64,000 nucleotides of DNA from positions 67,194 through 131,193 of the forward strand of contig JBARNH010000007.1 of assembly GCA_049802875.1 (NCBI GenBank). Reading direction: 5' to 3'. This DNA is from Thermoplasmata archaeon. GTDB lineage: Archaea > Thermoplasmatota > Thermoplasmata > Lutacidiplasmatales > UBA184. The translations under genes and the position numbers were made by a program. Within the stretch, counting starts at the first letter, position 1. Each line of letters opens with the position of its first letter. Below, one piece after another: positions 2,930-59,710 of this stretch. Below the pieces are notes generated by a model that worked only from the letters and a program-made list of their open reading frames with translations, made no database searches and was not told where the DNA came from.

Positions 2930-3224
2930 CGAGGGCCCCAAGAGCGGGAGGGGCACTTGATACCTTGGGTTACATCCGGCACTATTCGGACTCCGGAGGT
3001 TCGCGGCGCGGTGTCTGCAATGGTCATTGCACTTCAGCCCACTTTCGCCGAGAGGGGTAGACCAGTCATTGCTCTGGGTATCCTCGCAGCGGCGTCGGTC
3101 GATCGGATGCGACCTCCAGTTCGTTTGGTGTTGTCCAACTCGAGGGTTTGGTATTCTAGATGCGTTCAATTCCGAGAGCGACTCCGAAAGCGAGGATGTC
3201 GTTGGGCACGGAGGTCAACGCATC

Positions 3225-4841
3225 TTACGAGACGAATCCCAACAAGCACCGAGGATCACCTAGGGACACGGGTGATAACCCCCCTAGCCAGGGCAATGGG
3301 TGTTCGGAGTGGAGGACACACGGAAGGTAAACTAGGTCCAGGACACGCGGCGAACTAGCTCGAAGCTGAGTCGAGGCCTTCGGGTTAGTTGCCCGGACGT
3401 CGTTGACGTAGAGCTGCACGAGCCTCAACGCCTCGGCTTCCGTCGTCAACGGCGGAATGGCCTGTTGCCCAGGAATTGAGTACGACCCCACCCCCTGCAA
3501 AATCGCGGACAACCCTCCGCTCTGACTGATCTTCTGCTCCTTACCCGAAACACGACCATAGTAACCGGTGAGCGGTCGATTTCCACCGCGGGCAGAGAAG
3601 ACGTCTGTCAGGACCCGGAAGCTGCCCGCACCGGCCAGCGTGGTTACGTCGGTGGAGAAAGTGGCGGCAACGAGCAACACCTCGGGAACCTCTTTTCCCC
3701 GCTTCGTCCAGAGGACTCCGGTTTCGAAGGTATACGGAAGCTCCACGACCCAGAAGGGGACGAAAGTTCCGCCTCCGACGTTCAACAACTTAACTGCCCC
3801 TCTCCCCGACTGTGCGGCGCGAACCTCGGCTGCGCGTCGAAATATTTCCTCCTGGAATTTCAGGGACCGAAACGAAGTGGTCCAATCGCTCGGGGCGCTC
3901 CGTGAGAGCCAATCTACCACCGAGCCAAGTCTTTGGAGATACGCCAGTGGATGCGGGGGCACATTCAGAGAGTTTTCGGAGAGGTTGATCATGGAATTAA
4001 CCATCCGGATGACAGTCAGTTCCTGATCGACCGCCGTGGTCATGTACCCTAGTTCGGGGATCGATGACAAAGCTGTTCGCGCCGTTTTTAGTTCGCCCTC
4101 CGCCGCTCCGAGCAGTTTGCGGGGTAGTTCGAATTCCCGCCCTGTTACCAACTGGTCGACCGCCTTGCACTCCTCAGTAAGCCCGGCCAGCCGAGTCGAT
4201 AGGGCCGGCCAACGGCCTATGCTGGCGATTGCCTCCGAAGCCGTTGCGAGATTCTGCGAGATAAGATGAAAACGCTCGGGGTGGTTGCTCTGAGAAAGCT
4301 TCTCGACGACCAGGAGTGATTGATAGCAGGATGCCAGTCCGCTGGCTCGACGGATGAGCTCTCGAGCAGTCTCATCTACGGCCAGAGCTGAAATGGATTG
4401 TACTTTCGCATTGAAAACGGACACGGCTGCCGGGTTTTCACCCGAAGATGGGCGAAGGCTCGATATGAACGGAAGTGAGGCCAGCGGGGACGAGAGAAGT
4501 TGGAAGCAACGAAACCGGTACTGATCGCTTTCAGTGCTAAGGTGGGGCCGAATACCCGTGTTGAAGGCGGCGAGACGTGCCATTGGGTCCACATACTGCG
4601 ATCCCGAGACATCGAGACCCGGTGGAACCGTTTGTCGAACGAACGCTGTGACCTGGGCCATGAAATGGTCGAGAAATTGACGGGCATCGACGATTCTCTG
4701 CGATGTCCCGCAATAATCGCACGTTAGTATCTCTCCCTCGGAACGCGGGGAATAGGGAGCGCCGCATGCACTGCACCTTAGCCTATATTCGGAGAACATC
4801 GCGTCGGGCGCGAGCTGGCTGGTCGCTCCTACTCCCGTCAT
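3225..4841 (-). CDS. hypothetical protein with N-terminal CxxC-N13-CxxC zinc ribbon
   Basis: 538-aa ORF. The N-terminus reads CSACGAPYSPRSEGEILTCDYCGTS. No recognisable catalytic motifs. GC is lower than the surrounding DNA. It lies 33 bp downstream of ORF 4874..5968 on the same strand. Confidence 0.6.
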   Translation of the reverse strand: MTGVGATSQLAPDAMFSEYRLRCSACGAPYSPRSEGEILTCDYCGTSQRIVDARQFLDHFMAQVTAFVRQTVPPGLDVSGSQYVDPMARLAAFNTGIRPHLSTESDQYRFRCFQLLSSPLASLPFISSLRPSSGENPAAVSVFNAKVQSISALAVDETARELIRRASGLASCYQSLLVVEKLSQSNHPERFHLISQNLATASEAIASIGRWPALSTRLAGLTEECKAVDQLVTGREFELPRKLLGAAEGELKTARTALSSIPELGYMTTAVDQELTVIRMVNSMINLSENSLNVPPHPLAYLQRLGSVVDWLSRSAPSDWTTSFRSLKFQEEIFRRAAEVRAAQSGRGAVKLLNVGGGTFVPFWVVELPYTFETGVLWTKRGKEVPEVLLVAATFSTDVTTLAGAGSFRVLTDVFSARGGNRPLTGYYGRVSGKEQKISQSGGLSAILQGVGSYSIPGQQAIPPLTTEAEALRLVQLYVNDVRATNPKASTQLRASSPRVLDLVYLPCVLHSEHPLPWLGGLSPVSLGDPRCLLGFVS

Positions 4842-6010: not shown

Positions 6011-6029
6011 GGTGCAACGGTCGTTGCAC
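6011..6029. repeat. GGTGCAA-Nx-TTGCACC family palindromic motif
   Basis: GGTGCAACGGTCGTTGCAC (N4 spacer variant), upstream of the Zn-ribbon gene pair. Confidence 0.5.
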
Positions 6030-11242: not shown

Positions 11243-12367
11243 GTGCAGCCCTACGATCCACAACGTCCGGCGAGCCCCGGGACGTTTGCCGGACGTCACG
11301 AACTGTTGGAGTTCGCCGGCAATGCTCTGCGGGTCGCCGCGACACTTCATCGCGGGAGCGCGATTCTGCTTTACGGGTACCGGGGGAGTGGTAAGACCTC
11401 GGCCCTCCGAAAGATTCAATCCATTGTTAGAGACACTACCCCACACGGCGTTGTTATTGAAGTTCCACTCCGTGTGCCTAGCACAGAAGCGATGCTGGTC
11501 CACAGCATCGCCGAGATGGTACGTCGCGAAGTGACGTCCCAGGAAAAACTCACAAGCCGGATGAAGAAAGCGCTCGGAAACCTGAGCGCGGTAACGGTTC
11601 TGGGGAGCGGGATCGAGCGAACGAAACCACTACCCTTCACGCCCTCCACACTCCTCACAGTGTGGAAGGACGCACTCCTTGCACTCGGGGATCTGCCCCT
11701 TTTGGCAATCAGCATCGACGACGCCGAGCTTCTCAAGGCCGGCGAAATTGGGATTCTCAAGACGATGGTTGAAACAGACTCTCCAGTGCCGATTCTGATG
11801 GTGGTTGCTGGTGGACCTGAGCTCATCGAGAAACTCTCTCTTCGCGAAGCGTCACCAATCCTTCGGTCGTTCTCGGGTGCAGTCTTTGACATCGGCCAGT
11901 TCTCGGAGGTGGAAACTCTGGAGGCCCTGGAAGCCCCCGTTAAACAGATCAAGGGGACCGGACGGTGGGACGCCTCGGCGGTTAAGGCGATTCACCATCT
12001 GACACACGGATACCCCTACCTGGTGCAATGCTTCGCGGCGGCGGCATATCAAGACAGTCGACGCATCAAGGGTGAAGACGTTCAACGGGCGATCCCTGGA
12101 GCCATGCAACTGGCTTCGAGCTGGCTCGAACGCGAGCTTCCGGAAGCCTCAGACGAAGACATCAGGGCATTCGCCAAAATCGCCACTTCAGGCAAAGTCG
12201 AGTTTCGAAGTTCCGACGCCATCCGGATGGGCATCAATCACATCTATCTCTCAAGGCTCACTACTCAAGGAGTCCTCAAGCGGCTGGCCCGGGGTCATTA
12301 CGAGCTTCGAATGGCGCCCGCGATCGCATACTTTCACGCGCTGAGGCGAGGGCTAAGCGCAGTCTGA
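11243..12367 (+). CDS. AAA+ ATPase of the archaeal-ATPase (Arch_ATPase-like) family with C-terminal winged-helix-like region
   Basis: Walker A YGYRGSGKTSAL. Walker B LLAISIDDAEL. Overall architecture resembles orphan archaeal ATPases. An AT-rich region lies upstream. Confidence 0.65.
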   Translation: MQPYDPQRPASPGTFAGRHELLEFAGNALRVAATLHRGSAILLYGYRGSGKTSALRKIQSIVRDTTPHGVVIEVPLRVPSTEAMLVHSIAEMVRREVTSQEKLTSRMKKALGNLSAVTVLGSGIERTKPLPFTPSTLLTVWKDALLALGDLPLLAISIDDAELLKAGEIGILKTMVETDSPVPILMVVAGGPELIEKLSLREASPILRSFSGAVFDIGQFSEVETLEALEAPVKQIKGTGRWDASAVKAIHHLTHGYPYLVQCFAAAAYQDSRRIKGEDVQRAIPGAMQLASSWLERELPEASDEDIRAFAKIATSGKVEFRSSDAIRMGINHIYLSRLTTQGVLKRLARGHYELRMAPAIAYFHALRRGLSAV

Positions 12368-12537: not shown

Positions 12538-12559
12538 GGGTGCAATGAAGCTTGCACCC
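12538..12559. repeat. GGTGCAA-N6-TTGCACC family palindromic motif
   Basis: GGGTGCAATGAAGCTTGCACCC. Between convergent genes. Confidence 0.65.
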
Positions 12560-13570: not shown

Positions 13571-15301
13571 GTGGCTCCCTCGCGTCCCCTAGCCAGCGAC
13601 CCAGCTCGCCATCTCGGCCGGTTCGGGACTGGTACAAAGTTCGCCGCGATCGCTTTCACCTTGCTGCTGATTGTAGTCGGAGCGTGGTGGGGGCTCAGCG
13701 AACGCCCTTCGGCGGGAGCTGGTGGCCAGCCCGTCGGCCCTCCCGCCGCCGCATCTCCGCCCGAAATCAAGCGCTTCCTTTGGGCACCCTCCAGCTTCGA
13801 GGTCAACAATACAACCAAGGGAGTGGTCACCACATCAGCGGGTCAGGGGCCCTACTCGTACGTTTGGTATGGCCTGCCCGACCCGTGTACGTCCCAGAAT
13901 TCATCCAATCTCTCTTGCGCCCCTTCCGTCGCCGGGACCTACAATGTGACGGTCACCGTGAGCAACGTGGCGGGATTCGCGTCAGATTCCGCCGCAATGA
14001 CTGTCAGCCCCTCCTCCCGTAACGTAACGCCGCCGCGTCCCAGTGGGCTGAATGTGACGTTGGTTAGTGGCAGGGAGATCGACGCAGCGGGTCAATCCTA
14101 TTTCGGGGTGGTGGCCCAAACGAACTGCTACAACTGTATCGCGGGGGCGGACGGACTCTATCTGAACGAGACCCCCTACGATGACATTCGGTACGGGCAG
14201 GGGGGCGATTCCTGTGACGTGGTCAACAATTCGTTCTACCAGAACGGAATCGTCGTGGGCCACTGTCCCTTTTCCATCAGCGCCCTCAAGCAATGGTGCT
14301 ACTCCACCACCCCCCACTGCAACTGGTATGTCGGAATGCCGGCCGAGATCAACAACCCGGGTTACGCGGGGTACGAAGCCAAGTGGCTGGTGGATACCAT
14401 GGGTTTTCCTCCCACGTACTGGTCGATCGGGAACGAACCTGAGAGCTATACGAACTGGAACTGTGCTTGGACCACGTGGGCGACCTGCAAGGGTACTCCC
14501 ACCGCGGAACAATGGGCGACGGAGGTCCTAGCGTACTCGCAAGCAATCCGGGCGGTCGTTCCCTCTGCGAAGATCATCGGCATCCAGGCGGTCGGTTCGT
14601 ACTCCACTTTCATTCCAACGCTCGCGGCGTCGCCCGCGGCGAAGTATCTGTACGCCATCGCTTTTCACGATTATCCGCCCCCGGCGGGAAGTAGCGAGAC
14701 CGACTACCTCTCCTCAATCACCGGCCAATACGCGCTGACCAACGAGGTGCAGGAGGTCCGGGCGGGGATCACCGCAGTGAATGCCTCGATGGCGAACCTG
14801 CCCATCTTCGTGGGTGAGTTCAACGGCGGGCCGTGTCCCATCCCTTCTCCCTTTGACCAAGGTTTCCCGGACGTTCTGCTGTACATGGGAACGGTGATCC
14901 AGGGGCTCCAGGCCAATCTGTCCGAGCTCGACTACTTTGCCTTGGCGAATGACGGTTTCTCGTTGGTGGGCACGAATTTCACTCCTTATCCCACCGGAAC
15001 GTGGATGACGGAGATGCACGGAGTTCGGTACGGTGACGCATACGACTACACCATCACCGGGGATGTGCCCGACGTCTGGTCGATCGAGTGGCGGGATGGA
15101 ACAAACGAGACTTTGATGGTGGTCAATGCCAACACGTCCGAACAATTGTCGCTCAGTGTCGGCACGAATTTCACCGAGGGATCCTTGGGCCACACGGTCT
15201 TCTGGAACGGGACCACCAGTGAACCGGAGGTGTCCGCTCTGCCGCTCCCGCAATACTACGCCGTTCCCCCAGAGTCCATTCTTCTAGTGGAGAACTACTG
15301 A
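13571..15301 (+). CDS. membrane-anchored extracellular glycoside-hydrolase-like protein (clan GH-A-like TIM barrel)
   Basis: GTG start. N-terminal signal anchor FAAIAFTLLLIVVGAWWGL. A PKD/Ig-like segment. WSIGNEPE (acid/base NEP motif) and FVGEFNGG (nucleophile GE[FY]). Many N-glycosylation sequons. Confidence 0.55.
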   Translation: MAPSRPLASDPARHLGRFGTGTKFAAIAFTLLLIVVGAWWGLSERPSAGAGGQPVGPPAAASPPEIKRFLWAPSSFEVNNTTKGVVTTSAGQGPYSYVWYGLPDPCTSQNSSNLSCAPSVAGTYNVTVTVSNVAGFASDSAAMTVSPSSRNVTPPRPSGLNVTLVSGREIDAAGQSYFGVVAQTNCYNCIAGADGLYLNETPYDDIRYGQGGDSCDVVNNSFYQNGIVVGHCPFSISALKQWCYSTTPHCNWYVGMPAEINNPGYAGYEAKWLVDTMGFPPTYWSIGNEPESYTNWNCAWTTWATCKGTPTAEQWATEVLAYSQAIRAVVPSAKIIGIQAVGSYSTFIPTLAASPAAKYLYAIAFHDYPPPAGSSETDYLSSITGQYALTNEVQEVRAGITAVNASMANLPIFVGEFNGGPCPIPSPFDQGFPDVLLYMGTVIQGLQANLSELDYFALANDGFSLVGTNFTPYPTGTWMTEMHGVRYGDAYDYTITGDVPDVWSIEWRDGTNETLMVVNANTSEQLSLSVGTNFTEGSLGHTVFWNGTTSEPEVSALPLPQYYAVPPESILLVENY

Positions 15302-15437
15302 TCCCACACGTAGCTCCTCTCGCGAACAATGCGCATAGTGGTCAGCGCGCGACGAATTCAACTTCCGAACTGCACCAATCCTCCGTTCGAAGGTTAAGTG
15401 GTGCATCACCTACAAGTTGGATTTCCGCGCATACCTT

Positions 15438-15459
15438 GGGTGCAAAGCCGCTTGCAACC
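15438..15459. repeat. GGTGCAA-N6-TTGCACC family palindromic motif
   Basis: GGGTGCAAAGCCGCTTGCAACC. First of a tandem doublet. Confidence 0.6.
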
Positions 15460-15475
15460 ACTCACCACGCCGGCT

Positions 15476-15497
15476 GGGTGCAATAGTACTTGCTCCC
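15476..15497. repeat. GGTGCAA-N6-TTGCACC family palindromic motif
   Basis: GGGTGCAATAGTACTTGCTCCC. Second of the doublet. Confidence 0.55.
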
Positions 15498-15590
15498 ACC
15501 AGCGAGGGGATGCCAGGATATGGGGGGAGTTCACGACCACTTAGCGGAATGCCAAGGTTGGTCTCGACTGCCCAGAGACTCAGTGCGAAG

Positions 15591-16313
15591 TCATGCTGGT
15601 TCAATCGAACTGACAGGAATGCAACTCTGGACCATGTTGGCGAAACGCGACCAGCGAGAGAGGTTTGTCCGGCTTTCAGGGCTGCCTTGAAGCAATCTCG
15701 ATAACGTGTCGACATACGTCTTCCGATCGTTGACGCGACTCAGCACCAACTTGAACTTCCTCAGAGCAACTGACTGGAGGAACCGGCCGAACAGCTCACG
15801 GACCTCTCCTAGATTGACTTCCTGACTCATGATGCCGAAGAGATCGGTGAGGTCGTGGGGGCGTCCGGCTAGGAGCTTCGTCGCCCACAGCCCTTCCAAG
15901 CGCACCACATCCACCTGACTGCTTAGGGGCCCGGAGAGAAGCTCGAGGCGAACGGACCGTGGGCTACGAAGCAGCCAATCTCCGGGGATGGTCACGCCCG
16001 AGTCTCTGTCGCGCACCCCGCCTATCATCAGGTCTAGCGTGATCGCCCGATATTCCCATCGTTGAACCTCGAGGCTGGCTCTCCCTTGGTGGAAAACACG
16101 ATGCCCCGGGGCCAACAGTAGGTGGTGAGATTTTAGCCAGTCGGCCCAATCAACCCTACTCCGTTCGGAGACGACGACGTCGACATCAACCGAGTACCGT
16201 GGGGTGCCGTAGGCGGCGACCGCGTAGCCACCCACAACCACGCCATCGAGCTCCGTCGGCCAAGCCTCGAGCAGCCTGGCTACCTGGAGCTCACGCTGAT
16301 CCGCGTCGATCAT
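15591..16313 (-). CDS. abiEii: AbiEii-like nucleotidyltransferase (type IV toxin-antitoxin toxin candidate)
   Basis: The ORF-track ORF is 15591..16454. The likely start is the ATG at 16313 (MIDADQ...). It has the pol-beta NTase motif GG-x13-DVDV (VVGGYAVAAYGTPRYSVDVDVVV). It overlaps the upstream wHTH gene by 23 nt. Confidence 0.55.
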   Translation of the reverse strand: MIDADQRELQVARLLEAWPTELDGVVVGGYAVAAYGTPRYSVDVDVVVSERSRVDWADWLKSHHLLLAPGHRVFHQGRASLEVQRWEYRAITLDLMIGGVRDRDSGVTIPGDWLLRSPRSVRLELLSGPLSSQVDVVRLEGLWATKLLAGRPHDLTDLFGIMSQEVNLGEVRELFGRFLQSVALRKFKLVLSRVNDRKTYVDTLSRLLQGSPESRTNLSRWSRFANMVQSCIPVSSIEPA

Positions 16314-16875
16314 GCACGAGTTCCGCAGCGTTCGCGAAGATGGCGGGGTGCGCACGTATGAGCTCCAACACGTCGGATCTCGGAATGACGGGCTCCCCGG
16401 CGTGAAACGCCACCTTGACTTCCTCGAGAGGCACGAGCTCGATCCGCGGTCCAATTCGTCGCCTCGACCGTCGCGAAAGTCCCTTTGCGCGCAAGTAACG
16501 GTCCCAGCGCTCCAATGAAGTCGCCGGAACCGCGAGCGTGTAAACGCGAACGAAGACGGAAGGCGACGTTCGGTATCGTCCGCCGGTCCACACCTCGACC
16601 GCGTTCGCTCCCGCCCAGGCCTTCGTCCCCGGACCCCTCAGGAGGGTTTCCCGGATGCGTCGCCACTCGAACCGCCTGAGATCTGGCCGCTCCGTTGGGC
16701 CAAGCCGACGGTACCGCCCTCTCCCGACACGTGCGATGTGCCCGCGCGCCTTCAGTTCGCTGAGCACCTTGCCTGCACGGGGATTGGCCACGCGACTCGC
16801 GAAGTCTCGCACAGTGAATTCTGAGATCCCGTACAGATGGTCAATGGCATCGACGTACGCGGTCGCCATGGTCAC
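16291..16875 (-). CDS. abiEi: AbiEi-like winged-helix antitoxin/transcriptional regulator
   Basis: 194 aa with an N-terminal wHTH (FTVRDFASRV..GKVLSELKARGHIARVGRGRY). GTG start at 16875 (ATG at 16869). It sits directly upstream of the NTase gene with overlapping ends. Confidence 0.55.
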   Translation of the reverse strand: MTMATAYVDAIDHLYGISEFTVRDFASRVANPRAGKVLSELKARGHIARVGRGRYRRLGPTERPDLRRFEWRRIRETLLRGPGTKAWAGANAVEVWTGGRYRTSPSVFVRVYTLAVPATSLERWDRYLRAKGLSRRSRRRIGPRIELVPLEEVKVAFHAGEPVIPRSDVLELIRAHPAIFANAAELVHDRRGSA

Positions 16876-16879
16876 TTAT

Positions 16880-16915
16880 TATCGGAACTATTATTTAATA
16901 ATTGTTATCATTGGG
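16880..16915 (-). promoter_or_regulatory. AT-rich TATA-like promoter element for abiEi-abiEii
   Basis: TTATTATCGGAACTATTATTTAATAATTGTTATCA lies immediately upstream of the minus-strand start codon, in an otherwise ~65% GC background. Confidence 0.45.
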
Positions 16916-17023
16916 AGGTCGATTTCTCGCCGGAGGCTGCGCCACGCGATAGCCGAAGTCGAGACGCTCCGATGAGGGCGGCTCACGGGTCGGAAAGGTG
17001 CAACGCCCATTGCGCCCGGGTCT

Positions 17024-17632
17024 CTACTTTCGACGCGAGGTTCCGGCCCTGCCTCGGGATAAGTTCCAGGGAAAAGAACGTTCGGGTTGGTCTCTAGAGG
17101 ACAGACGAGACGCCGCCGTCTCGATCGCTAACTGAGCCGAAGCCACCGAGCCAGAGAAGCGGGGCGCTCGAGCGCTTGCACTCCACATTGCCCAGCTTTC
17201 TGCTTCGAGCGCGTGCGCGCCGGAGCTGGTATGCACAGACCGGGTGACGACCAACAACCGCTGTTCGAGAGCACGTAGAGCGGGTCGGAACCCTTGAGAT
17301 CTCGCCCCAAAGTTGGCTGGCAGGTGGTCGCTCCGTAAGGTTCCATCGCGATCGATTCGGGCCAAGAGTTGTTGTGCAACGACACTGAGTCCGGCCATCT
17401 GCCAGGATGTCCGAGCTTCTCCTACTCTAACTAGCGCCGGCCAGAGTCGCCGATGGACCATTGTGAGCTTTCTGTTCCAGATCCGCAGGACTAGAACGTC
17501 GGGATCGGCCTCGAGAGCCTCAGCCACCTGATAGATCAACCGTCCGGTCGGATGCCCCCACCACGACCCGGAGACGGGCGCGCCCACGACTATCGAGACG
17601 AGAGATGGAACGGTCGAATCCGAAACAGGCAT
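17024..17632 (-). CDS. hypothetical protein
   Basis: The ORF-track ORF is 17024..17875. The start at 17632 (MPVSDS...) is preferred. The longer version overlaps the SRPBCC gene and contains a palindromic-motif half-site at 17756-17780. Confidence 0.4.
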   Translation of the reverse strand: MPVSDSTVPSLVSIVVGAPVSGSWWGHPTGRLIYQVAEALEADPDVLVLRIWNRKLTMVHRRLWPALVRVGEARTSWQMAGLSVVAQQLLARIDRDGTLRSDHLPANFGARSQGFRPALRALEQRLLVVTRSVHTSSGAHALEAESWAMWSASARAPRFSGSVASAQLAIETAASRLSSRDQPERSFPWNLSRGRAGTSRRK

Positions 17633-17813
17633 CAGGCCAATTCTGCGGAGTTCCTTCTTGACACGAGATTGGGCCTGTTGGACGTCACTTGCGACCACAC
17701 CCTCGGAATCGTCGCCTAAGAGATGAAAGATTGGACTCAGATACTTTCGTTCAGGTAGGTGTAACGAGTCTTGCACCCACAACGAAGAGCGGGTGGCGAG
17801 GTGAGCTGAGTAC

Positions 17814-18323
17814 TCACTTGGATCGCTTGGCACTCGATATTGGACGAGCAGGCTGCTTCGTCTTGCCCTTGTCATTCGCGGTAGTGCGGGTTTTGCCTTG
17901 CTTGGAAATCAGTACCCGCAGAGGTCCTTTCACGTAGTATCCCCAAGCGCTCGAACAATCTCCGTAACATTCGACGTCAGGGACCAGGCCGACGTGCGTG
18001 AAACGGAGCTCGGTCTTGTCGCCCTTCTTCGCAATCTCGAAAGTGATCTTGCTCCCGTTCCATTCCGTTTGGTCCTTAACGAAACTGAGCTTGCTGTCTA
18101 GGACCAGCCAGACAACTTTCTTCCCGGGAACGAACTCCGTGATCCTTTGTTTGGTGTAGTGGAGATCCTTGAACTGATATGTCCACACTGCGCCGAGCTT
18201 GTCGGTTGCACCTTTCGCCCCTGGTTCTCCTGTCCACCACCCGCGAACGTCATTGATGGCGCTGAAAACCTCTTCCGGGGTTCGACTCACGGTGTAGGCG
18301 ACACTGAAGTTTGGGCCGCTCAT
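17814..18323 (-). CDS. SRPBCC-family protein (AHSA1/Aha1-like domain)
   Basis: 169 aa: FSVAYTVSRTPEEVFSAINDVRGWW...ITFEIAKKGDKTELRFTH. Typical Aha1-domain pattern. Confidence 0.7.
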   Translation of the reverse strand: MSGPNFSVAYTVSRTPEEVFSAINDVRGWWTGEPGAKGATDKLGAVWTYQFKDLHYTKQRITEFVPGKKVVWLVLDSKLSFVKDQTEWNGSKITFEIAKKGDKTELRFTHVGLVPDVECYGDCSSAWGYYVKGPLRVLISKQGKTRTTANDKGKTKQPARPISSAKRSK

Positions 18324-18382: not shown

Positions 18383-18403
18383 GTTGCAACGCTACTTGCA
18401 CTC
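18383..18403. repeat. GGTGCAA-N6-TTGCACC family palindromic motif
   Basis: GTTGCAACGCTACTTGCACTC. Confidence 0.55.
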
Positions 18404-20796: not shown

Positions 20797-20818
20797 AGGT
20801 GCGATCTGACTCGCACCT
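20797..20818. repeat. palindromic motif variant (TGCGA..TCGCA)
   Basis: AGGTGCGATCTGACTCGCACCT, 7 nt after the MFS stop. Confidence 0.5.
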
Positions 20819-20863: not shown

Positions 20864-22828
20864 TTACTTCGGAGCCTGAACGGGTCGGCCGTACGTCGAC
20901 ATGAGCTCCACGAATCTTCGGTCCCTCCTCGCCCCCGCGAACAGGGGGGACATGCGGAGCCGAGCGGCCTGCATCGTATGCGCTTTCGCCGTGGCAAACA
21001 TGACCTCGAAGAAACGGTCGAGATCGCCCAGTGCAAAGAAGATGAACCCGACCGACGATTGGCGCGCGTACCCCTCGCGAGAAGTTTCCTGAAGCCTCTC
21101 GATCATCTTCATGGCCGTCGGACGATCCCCCCGCAGCGCCGACAGCCACCCGCGGCAGAGGAGGGCGAGGTCGCTCGATGGAGCGAGTCGTTCCAACTCC
21201 TTCACCATCAGTTCCGCCTGATCGAAATCTCCCTTCAACATGTAGTACTCGACCATTCCACGGTGGGAATCCAGCGGGGCCTGCTCCATCGTCTTCCTCC
21301 AGTGGGCCAGAGCCTCCTCCAGCCGACCCGAGAAGAAGTAGGCGTTCCCCAGGGATCGGATCGTCTGCGGCGAAAGAGGGTCCAGCCGGTACGCCTCCTC
21401 GCTCTCGGTGGCGTACGCCTCCGCGATTGCGAGGGATCCCGCCAGCGCTGACAATATGATATGCGCCTGAGCCAAGTTGGGATTCAACTCGAGCGCCTTT
21501 CGCACTTCGCGGTCGAGGATGTCGGCCGGCTCGTCGGCCATGAATGCGATCTCGGCCCGTAGCGCATGAGCTTCAGCCAGATACGGCTCAATTGCTATCG
21601 CCTTCTCGGTTGCCGCCCGACCGAGATTGCAGGCGTCGAGCCATGACATAAAATCCTCCCTTCCGAGCTCGATGTACGCACGTGCCGTGCCCGCATAGGC
21701 TCGCGCAAACGTCGGGTCGGTCTGAAGTGCCTTTTTGAAGAATTCGAGAGAACGACGCAACGAATCCTCGTCGGTCCTCCACATTAGCGCCTGGCCCTGA
21801 AGGTAGAGAAGGTAGGCTTCCGTTTCAGTGGGTTTCGCGAGCTCGTGAATCGGGCTCCTCTCCCTCTTCAACCCTCCAGGGAGGGCAGTGGAGACCTTCG
21901 TTGCGATGTCTCCTTGCACAGCGAAGATGTCGTCGAGGTCGTCGTCGTACTTCGCCGTCCAAATATGTTCTTGGGAATCCACGTCGATTACCTGGACCGT
22001 CACACGGATTCGGTTTGCGGATCTGCGAACGCTTCCCTCCACGACCGTCCCAACCCCGAGCTCCTTTCCGATCATGGCTACGGACTTCTCTGTCTTCTTG
22101 TAGCCGATGACCGACGTCCGAGCGATCACCTTCAGGCCCGGCACGAGAGAGAGACTCGCAATCAGTTCCTCGGTGAGCCCATCGGCGAAATATTCGTCCG
22201 AGGGGTCAGGGCTAATGTTAGCGAACGGAAGGACTGCGAGACGGCTTTTGTCGGCGGAACGCGACTCGTCAACGACTTGTTCGCTGTTGTTGTTTATCCA
22301 GGGAAAAAGCACCCGATAGACGTCGACCGGAACTTCGATCCCCTTCAACGCTTTCGGCGGAAGCTTCTCGAACCTGTCAGCAACCTTGGATCGAACCTGA
22401 TCGTAGATGGCGCTGGAAACGCACACTCCACCGGGCTCGGCAAGGGGTTCGATTCGGGCTGCGATGTTCACTGCATCTCCGAGGATGTCGCCCCCGTTTT
22501 GGACCACGTCCCCTAGATGGACTCCGATTCGAATTCGGATGGGTGTCTGACCACCTTCGGAATTCCGGTCGTTTATCCGGCGCTGGATGTTCACCGCGCA
22601 TTGAACGGCCTTAAGCGCGCTGTCGAATTCCACGAGGAAGCCGTCACCCGTCGACTTGATTTCTCGACCCTGGTGGAGTGCGAGCAGTGGTCGAAGCAAT
22701 TCAGCCTGCTGGCGCAACACATCTAGGGTACGACCTTCGTTCGCCTGGGTGGACGCCGTGAACCCAACAGTGTCGGTGAACATGACGGCGGCGAGGCGGC
22801 GGCCCTGTTCCACGAACGTCGGAAGCAC
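20864..22828 (-). CDS. class III adenylate/guanylate cyclase with C-terminal TPR-repeat region
   Basis: N-terminal CHD domain (AVMFTDTVGFT...KSTGDGFLVEF...GVHLGDVV...AVNIAARIE), followed by ~400 aa of TPR-like helical repeats. Confidence 0.75.
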   Translation of the reverse strand: MLPTFVEQGRRLAAVMFTDTVGFTASTQANEGRTLDVLRQQAELLRPLLALHQGREIKSTGDGFLVEFDSALKAVQCAVNIQRRINDRNSEGGQTPIRIRIGVHLGDVVQNGGDILGDAVNIAARIEPLAEPGGVCVSSAIYDQVRSKVADRFEKLPPKALKGIEVPVDVYRVLFPWINNNSEQVVDESRSADKSRLAVLPFANISPDPSDEYFADGLTEELIASLSLVPGLKVIARTSVIGYKKTEKSVAMIGKELGVGTVVEGSVRRSANRIRVTVQVIDVDSQEHIWTAKYDDDLDDIFAVQGDIATKVSTALPGGLKRERSPIHELAKPTETEAYLLYLQGQALMWRTDEDSLRRSLEFFKKALQTDPTFARAYAGTARAYIELGREDFMSWLDACNLGRAATEKAIAIEPYLAEAHALRAEIAFMADEPADILDREVRKALELNPNLAQAHIILSALAGSLAIAEAYATESEEAYRLDPLSPQTIRSLGNAYFFSGRLEEALAHWRKTMEQAPLDSHRGMVEYYMLKGDFDQAELMVKELERLAPSSDLALLCRGWLSALRGDRPTAMKMIERLQETSREGYARQSSVGFIFFALGDLDRFFEVMFATAKAHTMQAARLRMSPLFAGARRDRRFVELMSTYGRPVQAPK

Positions 22829-39156: not shown

Positions 39157-39178
39157 TGGTGCAACGCAGCTTGCACAC
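39157..39178. repeat. GGTGCAA-N6-TTGCACC family palindromic motif
   Basis: TGGTGCAACGCAGCTTGCACAC. Confidence 0.65.
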
Positions 39179-39233: not shown

Positions 39234-39255
39234 AGGTGCAATCTCCATCGCACTC
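39234..39255. repeat. GGTGCAA-N6-TTGCACC family palindromic motif
   Basis: AGGTGCAATCTCCATCGCACTC. Second copy within 80 bp. Confidence 0.5.
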
Positions 39256-59690: not shown

Positions 59691-59710
59691 AGGTGCAAGG
59701 CCGATTGCAC
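59691..59710. repeat. GGTGCAA-N6-TTGCACC family palindromic motif
   Basis: AGGTGCAAGGCCGATTGCAC. Confidence 0.65.

Follow-up and report, generated by a model that had tools for sequence, protein, structure and literature searches.

Organization of the locus

The minus strand of a 64-kb stretch of DNA from a Thermoplasmata archaeon (here referred to as the window) carries two genes that overlap. They encode a putative 192-amino-acid (aa) regulatory protein and, immediately downstream, a 240-aa nucleotidyltransferase (NTase), referred to below as the antitoxin and the toxin (Table 1). An initial annotation of this DNA had described a 194-aa winged helix-turn-helix (wHTH) protein followed, with a 23-nucleotide (nt) overlap, by a protein carrying the signature GG-x13-DVDV, and all of these features are found in the sequence. 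The length of 194 aa corresponds to an open reading frame (ORF) that opens at an alternative GTG at 16875 (16291-16875, minus strand). The ATG at 16869, from which the protein is 192 aa long, is the start used in an identical database protein and by the gene callers, and 23 related promoters all align without gaps when they are anchored on this ATG.

Table 1. Coordinates of the two genes and associated features in the window
Feature	Position	Strand	Description
Antitoxin/regulator gene	16291..16869	-	192 aa from the ATG at 16869
Toxin gene	15591..16313	-	723 nt, 240 aa; DUF1814/AbiEii-superfamily nucleotidyltransferase, probably of the short MenT1-like branch
Gene overlap (antitoxin end/toxin start)	16291..16313	-	23 nt
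Toxin motifs I/II	16176..16235	-	Translates to VGGYAVAAYGTPRYSVDVDV, GG-x13-DVDV
Toxin motifs III/IV	15843..15878	-	K146-LLAG-R151-PH-D154-LT-D157
AT-rich block	16872..16913		80% A+T; contains the TATA box and the box region
TATA box TTAAATA	16892..16898	-	-29..-23 from the A of the ATG, center at -26
TATA-to-ATG region	16870..16891	-	Conserved TTCCG box at 16883-16887 (-18..-14) and conserved G at -4; putative operator bound by the wHTH
Hairpin doublet	15440..15495		Hairpins at 15440-15457 and 15478-15495
Further palindrome copy, GTGCAACGCCCATTGCGC	16998..17015		9 nt beyond the stop codon that ends the upstream minus-strand ORF (17024-17875)

The pair is maintained as a unit in related genomes. 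The antitoxin gene lies directly upstream of, and in the same orientation as, a DUF1814 gene in all 27 Thermoplasmata loci with upstream room, and every one of the 25 intact related Thermoplasmata loci has the overlap (4 to 47 nt; median, 14 nt). Translational coupling across the 23-nt overlap is the probable route to toxin synthesis in the window. In 24 of 25 loci, the antitoxin is better conserved than the toxin, which, judged by type II systems, is unusual for a toxin-antitoxin pair and speaks against identifying the genes as one. The neighbors of the pair are not syntenic across genomes, two paralogous pairs lie 8 kb apart on one contig, and decayed copies are present at three loci (L026, L027, and L029). 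The subgroup comprises 167 cluster representatives (E ≤ 1e-10) among 1.84 billion. The 29 closest genome matches are all Thermoplasmatota metagenome-assembled genomes; 27 of these are labeled Thermoplasmata, one "Methanobacteriota" (L012), and one "Thermoplasmatota" (L015). At a locus from a member of the Nitrososphaerota (L036), the partner protein gave no significant match to either family profile.

The downstream gene encodes a DUF1814 nucleotidyltransferase

The initial annotation had proposed a profile search of the downstream protein against PF08843 (AbiEii), and this search gave 27.2 bits (E = 4.6e-6), above the Pfam gathering score of 22.5, with a match that spans toxin residues 25 to 213 and profile positions 16 to 229 of 238. 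Most toxin homologues carry a precomputed PF08843 match, and their NCBI name is "nucleotidyl transferase AbiEii/AbiGii toxin family protein." With the PADLOC AbiEii models, the toxin gave only a marginal match (E = 0.011), and searches of the toxin, its partner, and the upstream ORF against NCBIfam gave no matches.

Motifs I and II of AbiEii take the form hG[G/S]-x(13-15)-DhD with an Arg four residues ahead of the first Asp (G49, G50, R63, D67, and D69) (PMC3985639). The toxin sequence V27-G28-G29-x13-D43-V-D45, together with R39, fits these DUF1814 motifs. In full, the segment reads V27-GG-YAVAAYGTP-R39-Y-S41-V-D43-V-D45-V and supplies the metal-binding Asp pair (D43 and D45), the conserved Arg (R39), and a Ser (S41) at the position of the MenT1 phospho-acceptor T39, to which MenT3 S78 and AbiEii T65 correspond in the literature. 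Among 46 homologues, no variation occurs at G28, G29, R39, or S41 or at the motif III and IV residues K146, A149, R151, D154, and D157, and conservation of D43 and D45 is 90% or higher. Motif III (K146-L-L-A-G-R151) fits KLxAaxxR, in which a Lys with hydrophobic surroundings precedes an Arg, with a K-to-R spacing shorter than that of AbiEii. Motif IV (H153-D154-L-T-D157) fits the +DxxD pentad that contains D192 in AbiEii. Its family consensus is QDLTD; the DxxD is invariant, H or Q occupies the "+" position (compare PQDRSD in MenT1), and the invariant R151 lies two residues upstream. All four AbiEii motifs are therefore present in the toxin. Beyond them lies a C-terminal helical region, an extra ~45 aa, with invariant Y200, D202, S205, R206, G210, and W221.

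Comparisons with solved structures place the toxin more precisely. When a toxin-family profile was searched against PDB sequences, MenT1 (8an4) was the sole match (E = 4.8e-8), and none of the AbiEii, MenT3, or MenT4 chains was matched at E ≤ 10. With an AlphaFold2 (AF2) model of the toxin (pLDDT of 94) as the Foldseek query, MenT1 entries filled the top five places (E = 2e-8), and ANT(2'')-Ia, LnuA, and TM1012 were further significant fold neighbors. In the alignment with MenT1, S41 corresponds to T39 (the Thr of the MenT1 sequence RFTRDVD), D43 to D41, K146 to K137, D154 to D149, and D157 to D152. Because MenT1 is both the only PDB sequence match and the top fold match, the toxin probably belongs to the short MenT1-like branch of DUF1814 rather than to the branch of AbiEii, MenT3, and MenT4. 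MenT1 has been assigned to COG4849 (bioRxiv 10.64898/2026.01.19.700257), and the evidence leans against membership of the toxin in the COG2253 branch that holds the other three. The earlier description of the toxin as AbiEii-like stands at the level of the DUF1814 superfamily and probably gives way to MenT1-like at the level of the branch.

The fold neighbors ANT(2'')-Ia, LnuA, and TM1012 are also what might be expected if the locus were no toxin-antitoxin system but a transcription factor merely co-transcribed with a benign minimal NTase. The NTase might, for example, act on small molecules or antibiotics, as ANT(2'')/Lnu do, or have a housekeeping role in RNA modification. The Pfam score of the toxin is barely over threshold, second-tier relatives fall near it (with side matches to DUF6036, NTP_transf_5, and the ANT(2'') family), and the neighboring genes are ordinary, all of which agree with such an enzyme. 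We nevertheless consider it very unlikely, given that the DUF1814-specific motifs III and IV (KLLAGR and DxxD) and the R-x-S-x-D-x-D signature are invariant and that the invariant motifs align with MenT1 residues needed for toxicity. The NTase is, moreover, strictly paired and overlapping with an AbiEi-type partner, and the pair has the multicopy, patchy distribution, decayed copies, and varying genomic context typical of toxin-antitoxin modules. An MNT-HEPN or other minimal-NTase system was also considered and rejected, as a HEPN partner is absent.

The upstream gene encodes an AbiEi-type two-domain protein

The antitoxin consists of an N-terminal wHTH of the AbiEi_4 type (residues ~1 to 56) and a C-terminal alpha/beta domain with an NTase-like fold that lacks the catalytic Asp residues. 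A second profile check that had been proposed, against AbiEi models, had a split outcome: the antitoxin alone scored 16.4 bits against the AbiEi_4 wHTH model, below the Pfam gathering score of 25, while at the family level the model was matched by 52 of 53 members (E ≤ 0.1; best E = 1.2e-8). The PADLOC AbiEi model matched the antitoxin with an E value of 7.4e-5. In the AF2 model, the wHTH elements (H5-12, E17-19, H20-27, H32-41, E45-49, and E52-55) follow the AbiEi_4 topology H1-S1-H2-t-H3-S2-W-S3. An antitoxin profile gave no significant match to PDB sequences, so structure comparison was needed; the best PDB matches in Foldseek were AbiEi (6y8q) and Rv2827c (1zel). Two antitoxin homologues carry the JGI label [quoted passage not shown] Taken with the PF08843 score and with the gene order and overlap kept in every intact locus, these matches uphold the initial view of an AbiE-like pair, and the partner proteins, mostly labeled "hypothetical," can be named AbiEi-type antitoxins in annotation.

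A comparison of the antitoxin C-terminal domain with the toxin sequence gave a weak signal (hhalign P = 8.7e-4; probability, 17 to 23%). We hypothesize on this basis that the domain may be homologous to the toxin by sequence.

A position-locked TATA box and a candidate operator

The promoter of the pair coincides with an AT-rich block that is the sole 40-nt stretch in the 64-kb window to reach 80% A+T, against a window average of 39%. Within it, the exact heptamer TTAAATA occurs only once in the window on both strands, and each of its bases is present in the same register in 22 to 24 of 24 aligned promoters. This position-locked TATA box supports the view of the initial annotation that the pair has its own AT-rich promoter, which we take to be a strong one. 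The distance of the TATA box from the ATG suggests that transcription probably starts at or next to the start codon, which would yield a leaderless mRNA.

The TTCCG box between the TATA box and the ATG is kept in 20 to 23 of the 24 promoters. In more distant loci, TTCCG is the left half of the palindrome ATATTCCG-N7-CGGAATAT, which covers the start site and is directly adjacent to the ATG. At this place, the window and the five relatives closest to it have TCCGAT-N6-GTG, with no clear right arm. AbiEi autoregulates through inverted repeats (PMC3985639, PMC7319586); within the clade of the window, the aligned promoters show only the left TTCCG box and no evident inverted repeat of the expected kind. 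We also considered as an operator a 13-bp palindrome, ATTATT-A-AATAAT, that lies over the TATA box. This candidate was rejected because relatives do not conserve it and because TATA boxes are inherently quasi-palindromic. A bacterial-type promoter and terminator scan, a kind of scan that is inapplicable to an archaeon, gave no match.

Hairpins at gene ends

The initial annotation had listed a downstream palindromic doublet as a flank of the pair. The doublet (copies at 15437-15461 and 15475-15499, each with a GTGCAA-N6-TTGCA(C) hairpin) lies where the toxin gene (stop at 15591) and a gene for a PKD-domain protein (stop at 15301) converge, and the RNA of a 76-nt stretch that contains it has a predicted folding energy of -26 to -31 kcal/mol. 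The exact palindrome GTGCAA-N4-9-TTGCAC occurs 8 times in the window, compared with 0 expected. Allowing at most one mismatch in each arm brings the number of copies in the 64 kb to 24, most of them just past stop codons; one of these sits between the upstream ORF and the promoter of the pair (Table 1). Palindrome density in related loci tracks the host lineage rather than the pair. The doublet is thus present and no chance event, but it consists of copies of a genome-wide gene-end palindrome and was rejected as a component of the module. It probably delimits the transcription unit on its 3' side. tRNA and Rfam scans that covered the full window gave no matches, and a permissive Rfam scan of 15200-17200 returned a chance lncRNA match alone (E = 0.53), so the intergenic hairpins do not belong to a known RNA family.

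The pair in its genomic neighborhood

We next consider the claim that the 11- to 17-kb region is associated with defense or the mobilome, which would make the pair one component of a larger defense island or mobile element. Two neighbors are suggestive in this respect: an AAA_16 ATPase of 374 aa (11243-12367) whose C-terminal part is an AbiEi_4-type wHTH and a cyclase-TPR protein (20864-22828) with a weak match to Pycsar cyclases, homologues of which lie within 4 kb of the pair at two related loci (L005 and L018). That the neighbors of the pair vary between genomes would also suit a mobile setting. The scans of the surroundings, however, speak against it. PADLOC found no defense-system match in nine flanking ORFs (4.9 to 22.8 kb) except the wHTH and cyclase domains, PHROGs found no phage match in eight flanking ORFs (3.2 to 17.9 kb), and integrase and transposase domains were absent from Pfam scans of the neighbors. 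The adjoining genes encode ordinary proteins (a PKD-domain secreted protein and SRPBCC/AHSA1, Rieske, HxlR, and MFS proteins), G+C content is flat across 11 to 19 kb (0.57 to 0.62), and neither tRNA genes nor flanking direct repeats were found. In the 4-kb flanks of related loci, no window neighbor other than the cyclase accompanies the pair. We regard an island of this kind as very unlikely, and the regional claim is left unsupported; for annotation, a lone AbiE-like pair is a poor flag for a defense island in its surroundings. The upstream ORF (17024-17875, minus strand) was rejected as a third component, having no family match and no homologue beside any related pair.

These data point to a self-contained two-gene operon of the DUF1814/AbiEi type, belonging to the AbiE and MenAT superfamily of toxin-antitoxin systems, a reading to which we give a probability of roughly three in four. 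The module may serve in abortive infection or have some other function connected with stress or stability.

Proposed mechanism

Toxicity, a tRNA target, phosphorylation, and repression in this subgroup are inferred by analogy with characterized relatives. MenT1 and MenT3 extend tRNA acceptor ends (PMC10435456, PMC11541572). Antitoxin-induced auto-phosphorylation has been described at MenT1 T39 and MenT3 S78 (PMC11375011) and at AbiEii T65 (bioRxiv 10.64898/2026.01.19.700257). AbiEi binds AbiEii, and a 2026 preprint reclassified AbiE from type IV to type VII on the ground of antitoxin-induced toxin auto-phosphorylation (bioRxiv 10.64898/2026.01.19.700257), so that the "type IV" label of the initial annotation has been overtaken. 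By analogy with MenT1, MenT3, and AbiEii, the 240-aa protein would add nucleotides to tRNA 3' ends and thereby block translation and growth, and the 192-aa protein would bind it through the C-terminal domain. Following type VII logic, the bound antitoxin would induce the toxin to auto-phosphorylate Ser41, two residues ahead of the first catalytic Asp, and so switch it off. The wHTH would bind the TTCCG-containing region from the TATA box to the start codon and repress the operon.

The mode of neutralization cannot simply be transferred from any one model, because MenA1 has no wHTH and MenT4 is not phosphorylated by its own AbiEi-type partner (bioRxiv 10.64898/2026.01.19.700257). The same two proteins might instead act by sequestration or occlusion, as in type II systems, or, as first modeled for AbiE under type IV, with no stable complex being formed; in either case, phosphorylation of Ser41 would be inessential. 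The toxin is nearest to MenT1, and for MenAT1 sequestration alone is enough in vivo and T39 is inessential for antitoxicity (PMC11375011); MenT1 T39A can be neutralized by MenA1 through sequestration. However, Ser41 is invariant in the 46 homologues even though MenT1 and AbiEii do not need the equivalent residue for NTase activity (PMC11375011; bioRxiv 10.64898/2026.01.19.700257), which fits a regulatory role. In addition, AbiEii T65A and MenT3 S78A are not neutralizable by their own AbiEi-type antitoxins (bioRxiv 10.64898/2026.01.19.700257), and the partner here is of that type. We consider neutralization by a route other than Ser41 rather unlikely, and we would give induced auto-phosphorylation of Ser41 about an even chance.

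A more specific reading, which we put forward tentatively and hold to be less likely than not, is that this small, largely Thermoplasmata subgroup represents an uncharacterized cross-pairing of a compact MenT1-like (COG4849-type) tRNA nucleotidyltransferase with an AbiEi-type (COG5340-like) two-domain antitoxin. The C-terminal domain of the antitoxin would be a catalytically dead paralogue of the toxin NTase fold and would neutralize the toxin via Ser41 auto-phosphorylation, and the wHTH would occupy the transcription start of a leaderless archaeal promoter and so repress it. If this holds, the module would rank as the first type VII DUF1814 system in archaea, and its antitoxin would have arisen through duplication of the toxin.

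Comparison with known systems

The AbiEi-AbiEii systems of Streptococcus agalactiae and Lactococcus lactis (COG5340 plus COG2253/DUF1814) have the same bicistronic order, with the regulator followed by the NTase. The antitoxin matches AbiEi in size (~195 aa), in its wHTH of the AbiEi_4 (DUF4095) type, and in having ANT(2'') and LnuA as structural neighbors of the C-terminal domain. The toxin shares with AbiEii motifs I to IV and a Ser/Thr two residues ahead of the first catalytic Asp, and, as in AbiE, a promoter-proximal repeat may be available for autoregulation. In contrast to AbiEii, the toxin is ~50 aa shorter and is nearer to MenT1 than to any solved COG2253 member. The host is also an archaeon, and the predicted promoter is archaeal, with a TATA box and a probably leaderless transcript, whereas that of AbiE is a sigma-70 promoter with two 23-bp inverted repeats.

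MenA1-MenT1 of Mycobacterium tuberculosis (Rv0078B-Rv0078A) contains the closest solved relative of the toxin. Both toxins are compact NTases, and the MenT1 residues that have been tested (T39, D41, K137, and D152) are conserved here as S41, D43, K146, and D157; the C-terminal helical region sets the present toxin apart. MenA1 is small, helical, and devoid of a wHTH; it binds a pair of toxins asymmetrically and is not autoregulatory (bioRxiv 10.64898/2026.01.19.700257; PMC10435456), unlike the 192-aa, two-domain AbiEi-type partner found here. In that respect, the pair resembles MenA3-MenT3 (Rv1044-Rv1045) and MenA4-MenT4 (Rv2827c-Rv2826c), in which an AbiEi-type (COG5340) two-domain antitoxin is likewise encoded upstream of a DUF1814 toxin. 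MenA4 is among the top fold matches of the antitoxin, with a C-terminal domain 55 aa longer than that of AbiEi (PMC7319586), and the MenT3 phospho-acceptor S78 corresponds to S41. MenT3 and MenT4 themselves are larger COG2253 proteins that the toxin profile missed.

Among archaea, PygAT of Pyrococcus yayanosii is likewise a DUF1814 toxin-antitoxin module, a likeness drawn from its description. It is an experimentally functional archaeal example whose neutralization mechanism is not known (PMC11375011). DUF1814/AbiE modules are among the few abortive-infection-type systems common in archaea, where PADLOC surveys have catalogued AbiE systems, and a survey found that Thermoplasmatota retain AbiE (PMC12988326). 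The module described here is an ordinary member of this catalogued family and does not overturn current understanding. To our knowledge, mechanistic work on DUF1814/AbiE modules has all been bacterial. This locus is a compact, well-defined archaeal representative with testable predictions (a Ser41 phospho-switch, catalysis by D43, D45, and K146, and a TTCCG operator over a leaderless start), and it lets one ask whether auto-phosphorylation and tRNA 3'-end extension hold outside bacteria.

The toxin is a MenT1-like DUF1814 nucleotidyltransferase

The initial annotation described two overlapping genes as an AbiE-type toxin-antitoxin pair. That core assignment held, while three additions to it (the type IV label, a downstream hairpin doublet as part of the module, and defense-related surroundings) did not. 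Against Pfam PF08843, the 240-aa product of the downstream gene scored 27.2 bits (curated cutoff, 22.5), which places it in AbiEii/DUF1814, and the GG-x13-DVDV signature of nucleotidyltransferases (NTases) was recovered by translation as VGGYAVAAYGTPRYSVDVDV. PADLOC AbiEii models matched marginally (E 0.011), and an NCBIfam search gave no match. Homologs (33-67% identity) were found in metagenomes and in MAGs of Thermoplasmata, and several bear the NCBI label "nucleotidyl transferase AbiEii/AbiGii toxin family protein." Across 46 aligned homologs, G28, G29, R39, S41, K146, A149, R151, D154, and D157 are invariant, as is a C-terminal set (D202, L204, S205, G210, and W221), and conservation reaches at least 90% at D43, D45, and D94. 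These residues span all four AbiEii motifs of Dy et al. (hG[GS]x13-15DhD with an upstream Arg, KLxAaxxR, and +DxxD; PMC3985639), with KLLAGR and HDLTD as the versions of KLxAaxxR and +DxxD found here.

Among solved structures, the toxin-family profile matched only the Mycobacterium tuberculosis toxin MenT1 (Rv0078A, 8an4; E 4.8e-8); MenT3, MenT4, and AbiEii chains were absent from the matches even at E 10. The alignment equates S41, D43, K146, D154, and D157 with MenT1 T39, D41, K137, D149, and D152 in the published numbering (PDB chain numbering is one lower). The five best PDB matches of the toxin AlphaFold model (pLDDT 94) were all MenT1 entries, the T39-phosphorylated form among them, followed by TM1012, ANT(2'')-Ia, and LnuA. 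Searching 1.84 billion cluster representatives with HMMER recovered 1254 relatives at E <= 1e-3 but just 167 at E <= 1e-10; full-length matches are mostly 225-245 aa, and second-tier relatives score around the PF08843 threshold. A 2026 AbiE preprint assigns MenT1 to COG4849 and AbiEii, MenT3, and MenT4 to COG2253 (bioRxiv 10.64898/2026.01.19.700257). From these scores, matches, and counts, the toxin subgroup is therefore a small and compact branch at the periphery of DUF1814, and MenT1 is its closest solved relative.

The closest bacterial relative found is a MenT1-sized 176-aa NTase of Neomoorella stamsii (locus L031, 3986-4516, plus strand; GGYAVAAYGAPRYTADVD ... KLIAGGQKDLWD). No upstream same-strand ORF of at least 60 aa was found there; this toxin-like gene either stands alone or has a very small unannotated partner.

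The partner resembles AbiEi

Alone, the partner scored 16.4 bits against the Pfam AbiEi_4 winged helix-turn-helix (wHTH), below the cutoff of 25, and E 7e-5 against PADLOC AbiEi. AbiEi_4 matched 52 of 53 partner homologs at E <= 0.1 (best E, 1.2e-8), and JGI names two homologs COG5340. In the AF2 model (pLDDT 90.9), a wHTH with the topology published for AbiEi forms the N terminus and precedes an alpha/beta domain. The first four Foldseek ranks for the full-length protein went to AbiEi (6y8q) and the MenT4 antitoxin Rv2827c (1zel), with weak E-values and a TM of ~0.3; this low global TM is plausible because the AbiEi and Rv2827c crystal structures themselves differ in domain orientation by 65 degrees (PMC7319586).

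The C-terminal domain is predicted by the model to be an NTase-like fold, and DxD is absent from its invariant residues in the family alignment. In a profile-profile comparison, partner residues 87-139 aligned to toxin residues 28-73, the motif I helix-strand-helix (P ~1e-3; probability, 17-23%), a weak match that does no more than hint at common ancestry. At a Nitrososphaerota MAG locus (L036), a distant 270-aa toxin relative (3833-4645, plus strand) is overlapped upstream by a 316-aa ORF (2955-3905, plus strand) with a wHTH-like N terminus and a C-terminal part, VGGSYAAYQYHRYSAPGSVDISV, that carries a toxin-like motif I/II minus the second Asp. Such a layout suggests that an antitoxin may have arisen from a toxin paralog; searched as a single sequence, the ORF stayed below significance against the profiles (E 0.1-0.2).

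The pair behaves as a module

The wHTH and NTase genes, which lie on the minus strand, overlap by 23 nt, as initially described. An identical partner protein in a public collection has 192 aa, and the same locus in a Thermoplasmata MAG contig (GCA_049800175.1) and in Logan contigs has genes of 192 and 240 aa, again with a 23-nt overlap. Because database copies are called as a 192-aa gene, the partner likely starts at the ATG at 16869.

Features of the pair and its surroundings (window positions)
Feature	Position	Strand	Description
ATPase	11243-12367	+	374 aa, AAA_16/AAA_22, C-terminal AbiEi_4-type wHTH
PKD-domain protein	13571-15301
Hairpin doublet	15440-15457, 15478-15495
Toxin ORF	15591-16313	-	723 nt, 240 aa
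NTase signature	16176-16235	-	GG-x13-DVDV
Partner ORF	16291-16875	-	194 aa from GTG
AT-rich block	16872-16913		80% A+T
Hairpin	16998-17015		9 nt past stop of ORF upstream of pair
ORF directly upstream of pair	17024-17875	-	283 aa
Hairpin	17759-17776		38 nt past stop of AHSA1-like gene
Cyclase-TPR protein	20864-22828	-	654 aa, class III nucleotide cyclase + TPR
Other hairpin examples	6012-6029, 12540-12557, 18384-18401, 20799-20816, 39159-39176, 39236-39253, 59693-59710
Other neighbors			AHSA1/SRPBCC, Rieske, HxlR, MFS proteins

Scanning 185,579 species genomes yielded 42 loci, the closest 29 of which all lie in Thermoplasmatota MAGs (27 labeled Thermoplasmata). The partner gene is immediately upstream of the toxin gene wherever there is room (27/27), and the two share 4-47 nt in every one of the 25 intact loci. 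Two loci (L003 and L005) are paralogous pairs ~8 kb apart on one contig (JAKIWV010000002.1). Three others are apparently decayed: the antitoxin match is split in L026 and the toxin match in L027, and L029 retains the 3' third of the toxin gene (last ~100 codons) with the antitoxin absent. Apart from the cyclase-TPR protein, the window neighbors do not recur within 4 kb of the pair elsewhere. Such pairing, overlap, paralogous and split copies, and changing neighbors are typical of toxin-antitoxin modules. Oddly, sequence conservation is higher in the antitoxin than in the toxin at 24 of the 25 related loci (L001 to L025 against 15591-16869; 80% versus 65% identity in L001), the opposite of the usual pattern in type II systems.

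Placement of the 11-17 kb region among defense- or mobilome-associated DNA found no support: G+C is flat around the pair, the window scan gave no tRNA genes, and PADLOC (nine flanking ORFs, 4.9-22.8 kb) and PHROGs (eight, 3.2-17.9 kb) returned nothing besides a wHTH and a weak cyclase match. The wHTH, in the ATPase (28 bits; cutoff, 25; best PADLOC AbiEi model E 7e-6, residues ~305-360), places another AbiEi-type DNA-binding domain, in a different architecture, 4 kb from the pair; this ATPase was not found beside the pair in the other genomes examined. The cyclase-TPR protein matched the PADLOC Pycsar cyclase model in its cyclase domain only (E 4e-9). Homologs with 38-44% identity lie within ~2 kb of the pair at L005 (6429-8213) and L018 (571-2385), which may be coincidence or loose association. 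The 283-aa ORF had no match in Pfam, NCBIfam, PADLOC, or PHROGs and no homolog at related loci; because a gene-end hairpin falls within the 5' region of the annotation, the true gene is probably shorter than called.

The doublet noted downstream of the pair exists, at the point where the toxin and PKD-domain genes converge. A role in the module was rejected, since its motif, (GTGG)GTGCAA-N6-TTGCAC(CCAC), occurs in 24 copies across the window (<=1 mismatch per arm; 8 exact matches against 0 expected), and related Thermoplasmata loci carry it either at 0.5-0.9 per kb or not at all, depending on the MAG and irrespective of the pair. Seventeen copies fall in the ~15% of the window that is noncoding, most of these 1-160 nt past a stop codon; copies stand behind the genes for the Rieske and AHSA1-like proteins and behind the ORF upstream of the pair. 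Rfam gave no family match in whole-window and local scans. The motif is a host gene-end element, with the look of a terminator-like or REP-like hairpin specific to the lineage, and the doublet plausibly bounds the pair's transcription unit.

A probably leaderless promoter and a candidate operator

The AT-rich block noted upstream of the pair is the sole 40-nt stretch at its A+T level in the window, and the proposed promoter with a TATA-like element was supported by a gap-free alignment of 24 promoters anchored on the start codon. TTAAATA is position locked at -29 to -23 (20-24 promoters per position) and occurs once as an exact heptamer in the 64-kb window; TTCCG follows at -18 to -14 (C/C/G in 20-23 promoters), with G at -4 in 21. 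The box is centered 26 nt upstream of the ATG, a spacing that in archaeal promoters implies transcription starting at or beside the ATG; the mRNA would then be leaderless. At loci farther removed, TTCCG forms the left arm of a palindromic element, ATATTCCG-N7-CGGAATAT, spanning the start site, a classic position for archaeal repressors. The window, like its five closest relatives, has TCCGAT-N6-GTG in place of the palindrome, and the TTCCG region is therefore a candidate operator at this locus.

Proposed mechanism and relation to known systems

By homology with MenT1 and MenT3 (PMC10435456, PMC11541572) and AbiEii (bioRxiv 10.64898/2026.01.19.700257), the toxin would extend tRNA 3' ends and so block translation. 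As in MenAT1 and MenAT3 (PMC11375011) and AbiE (bioRxiv 10.64898/2026.01.19.700257), the partner C-terminal domain would bind the toxin and trigger its autophosphorylation at the invariant Ser41; the main mechanistic rival is neutralization by sequestration alone. Along with triggering autophosphorylation, the partner would repress the pair's promoter through its wHTH (PMC3985639, PMC7319586).

According to surveys, AbiE is retained in Thermoplasmatota (PMC12988326). The pair belongs to this known kind and is modestly interesting for its twist: it joins a MenT1-like toxin to an AbiEi-type partner, under an archaeal promoter that is probably leaderless.
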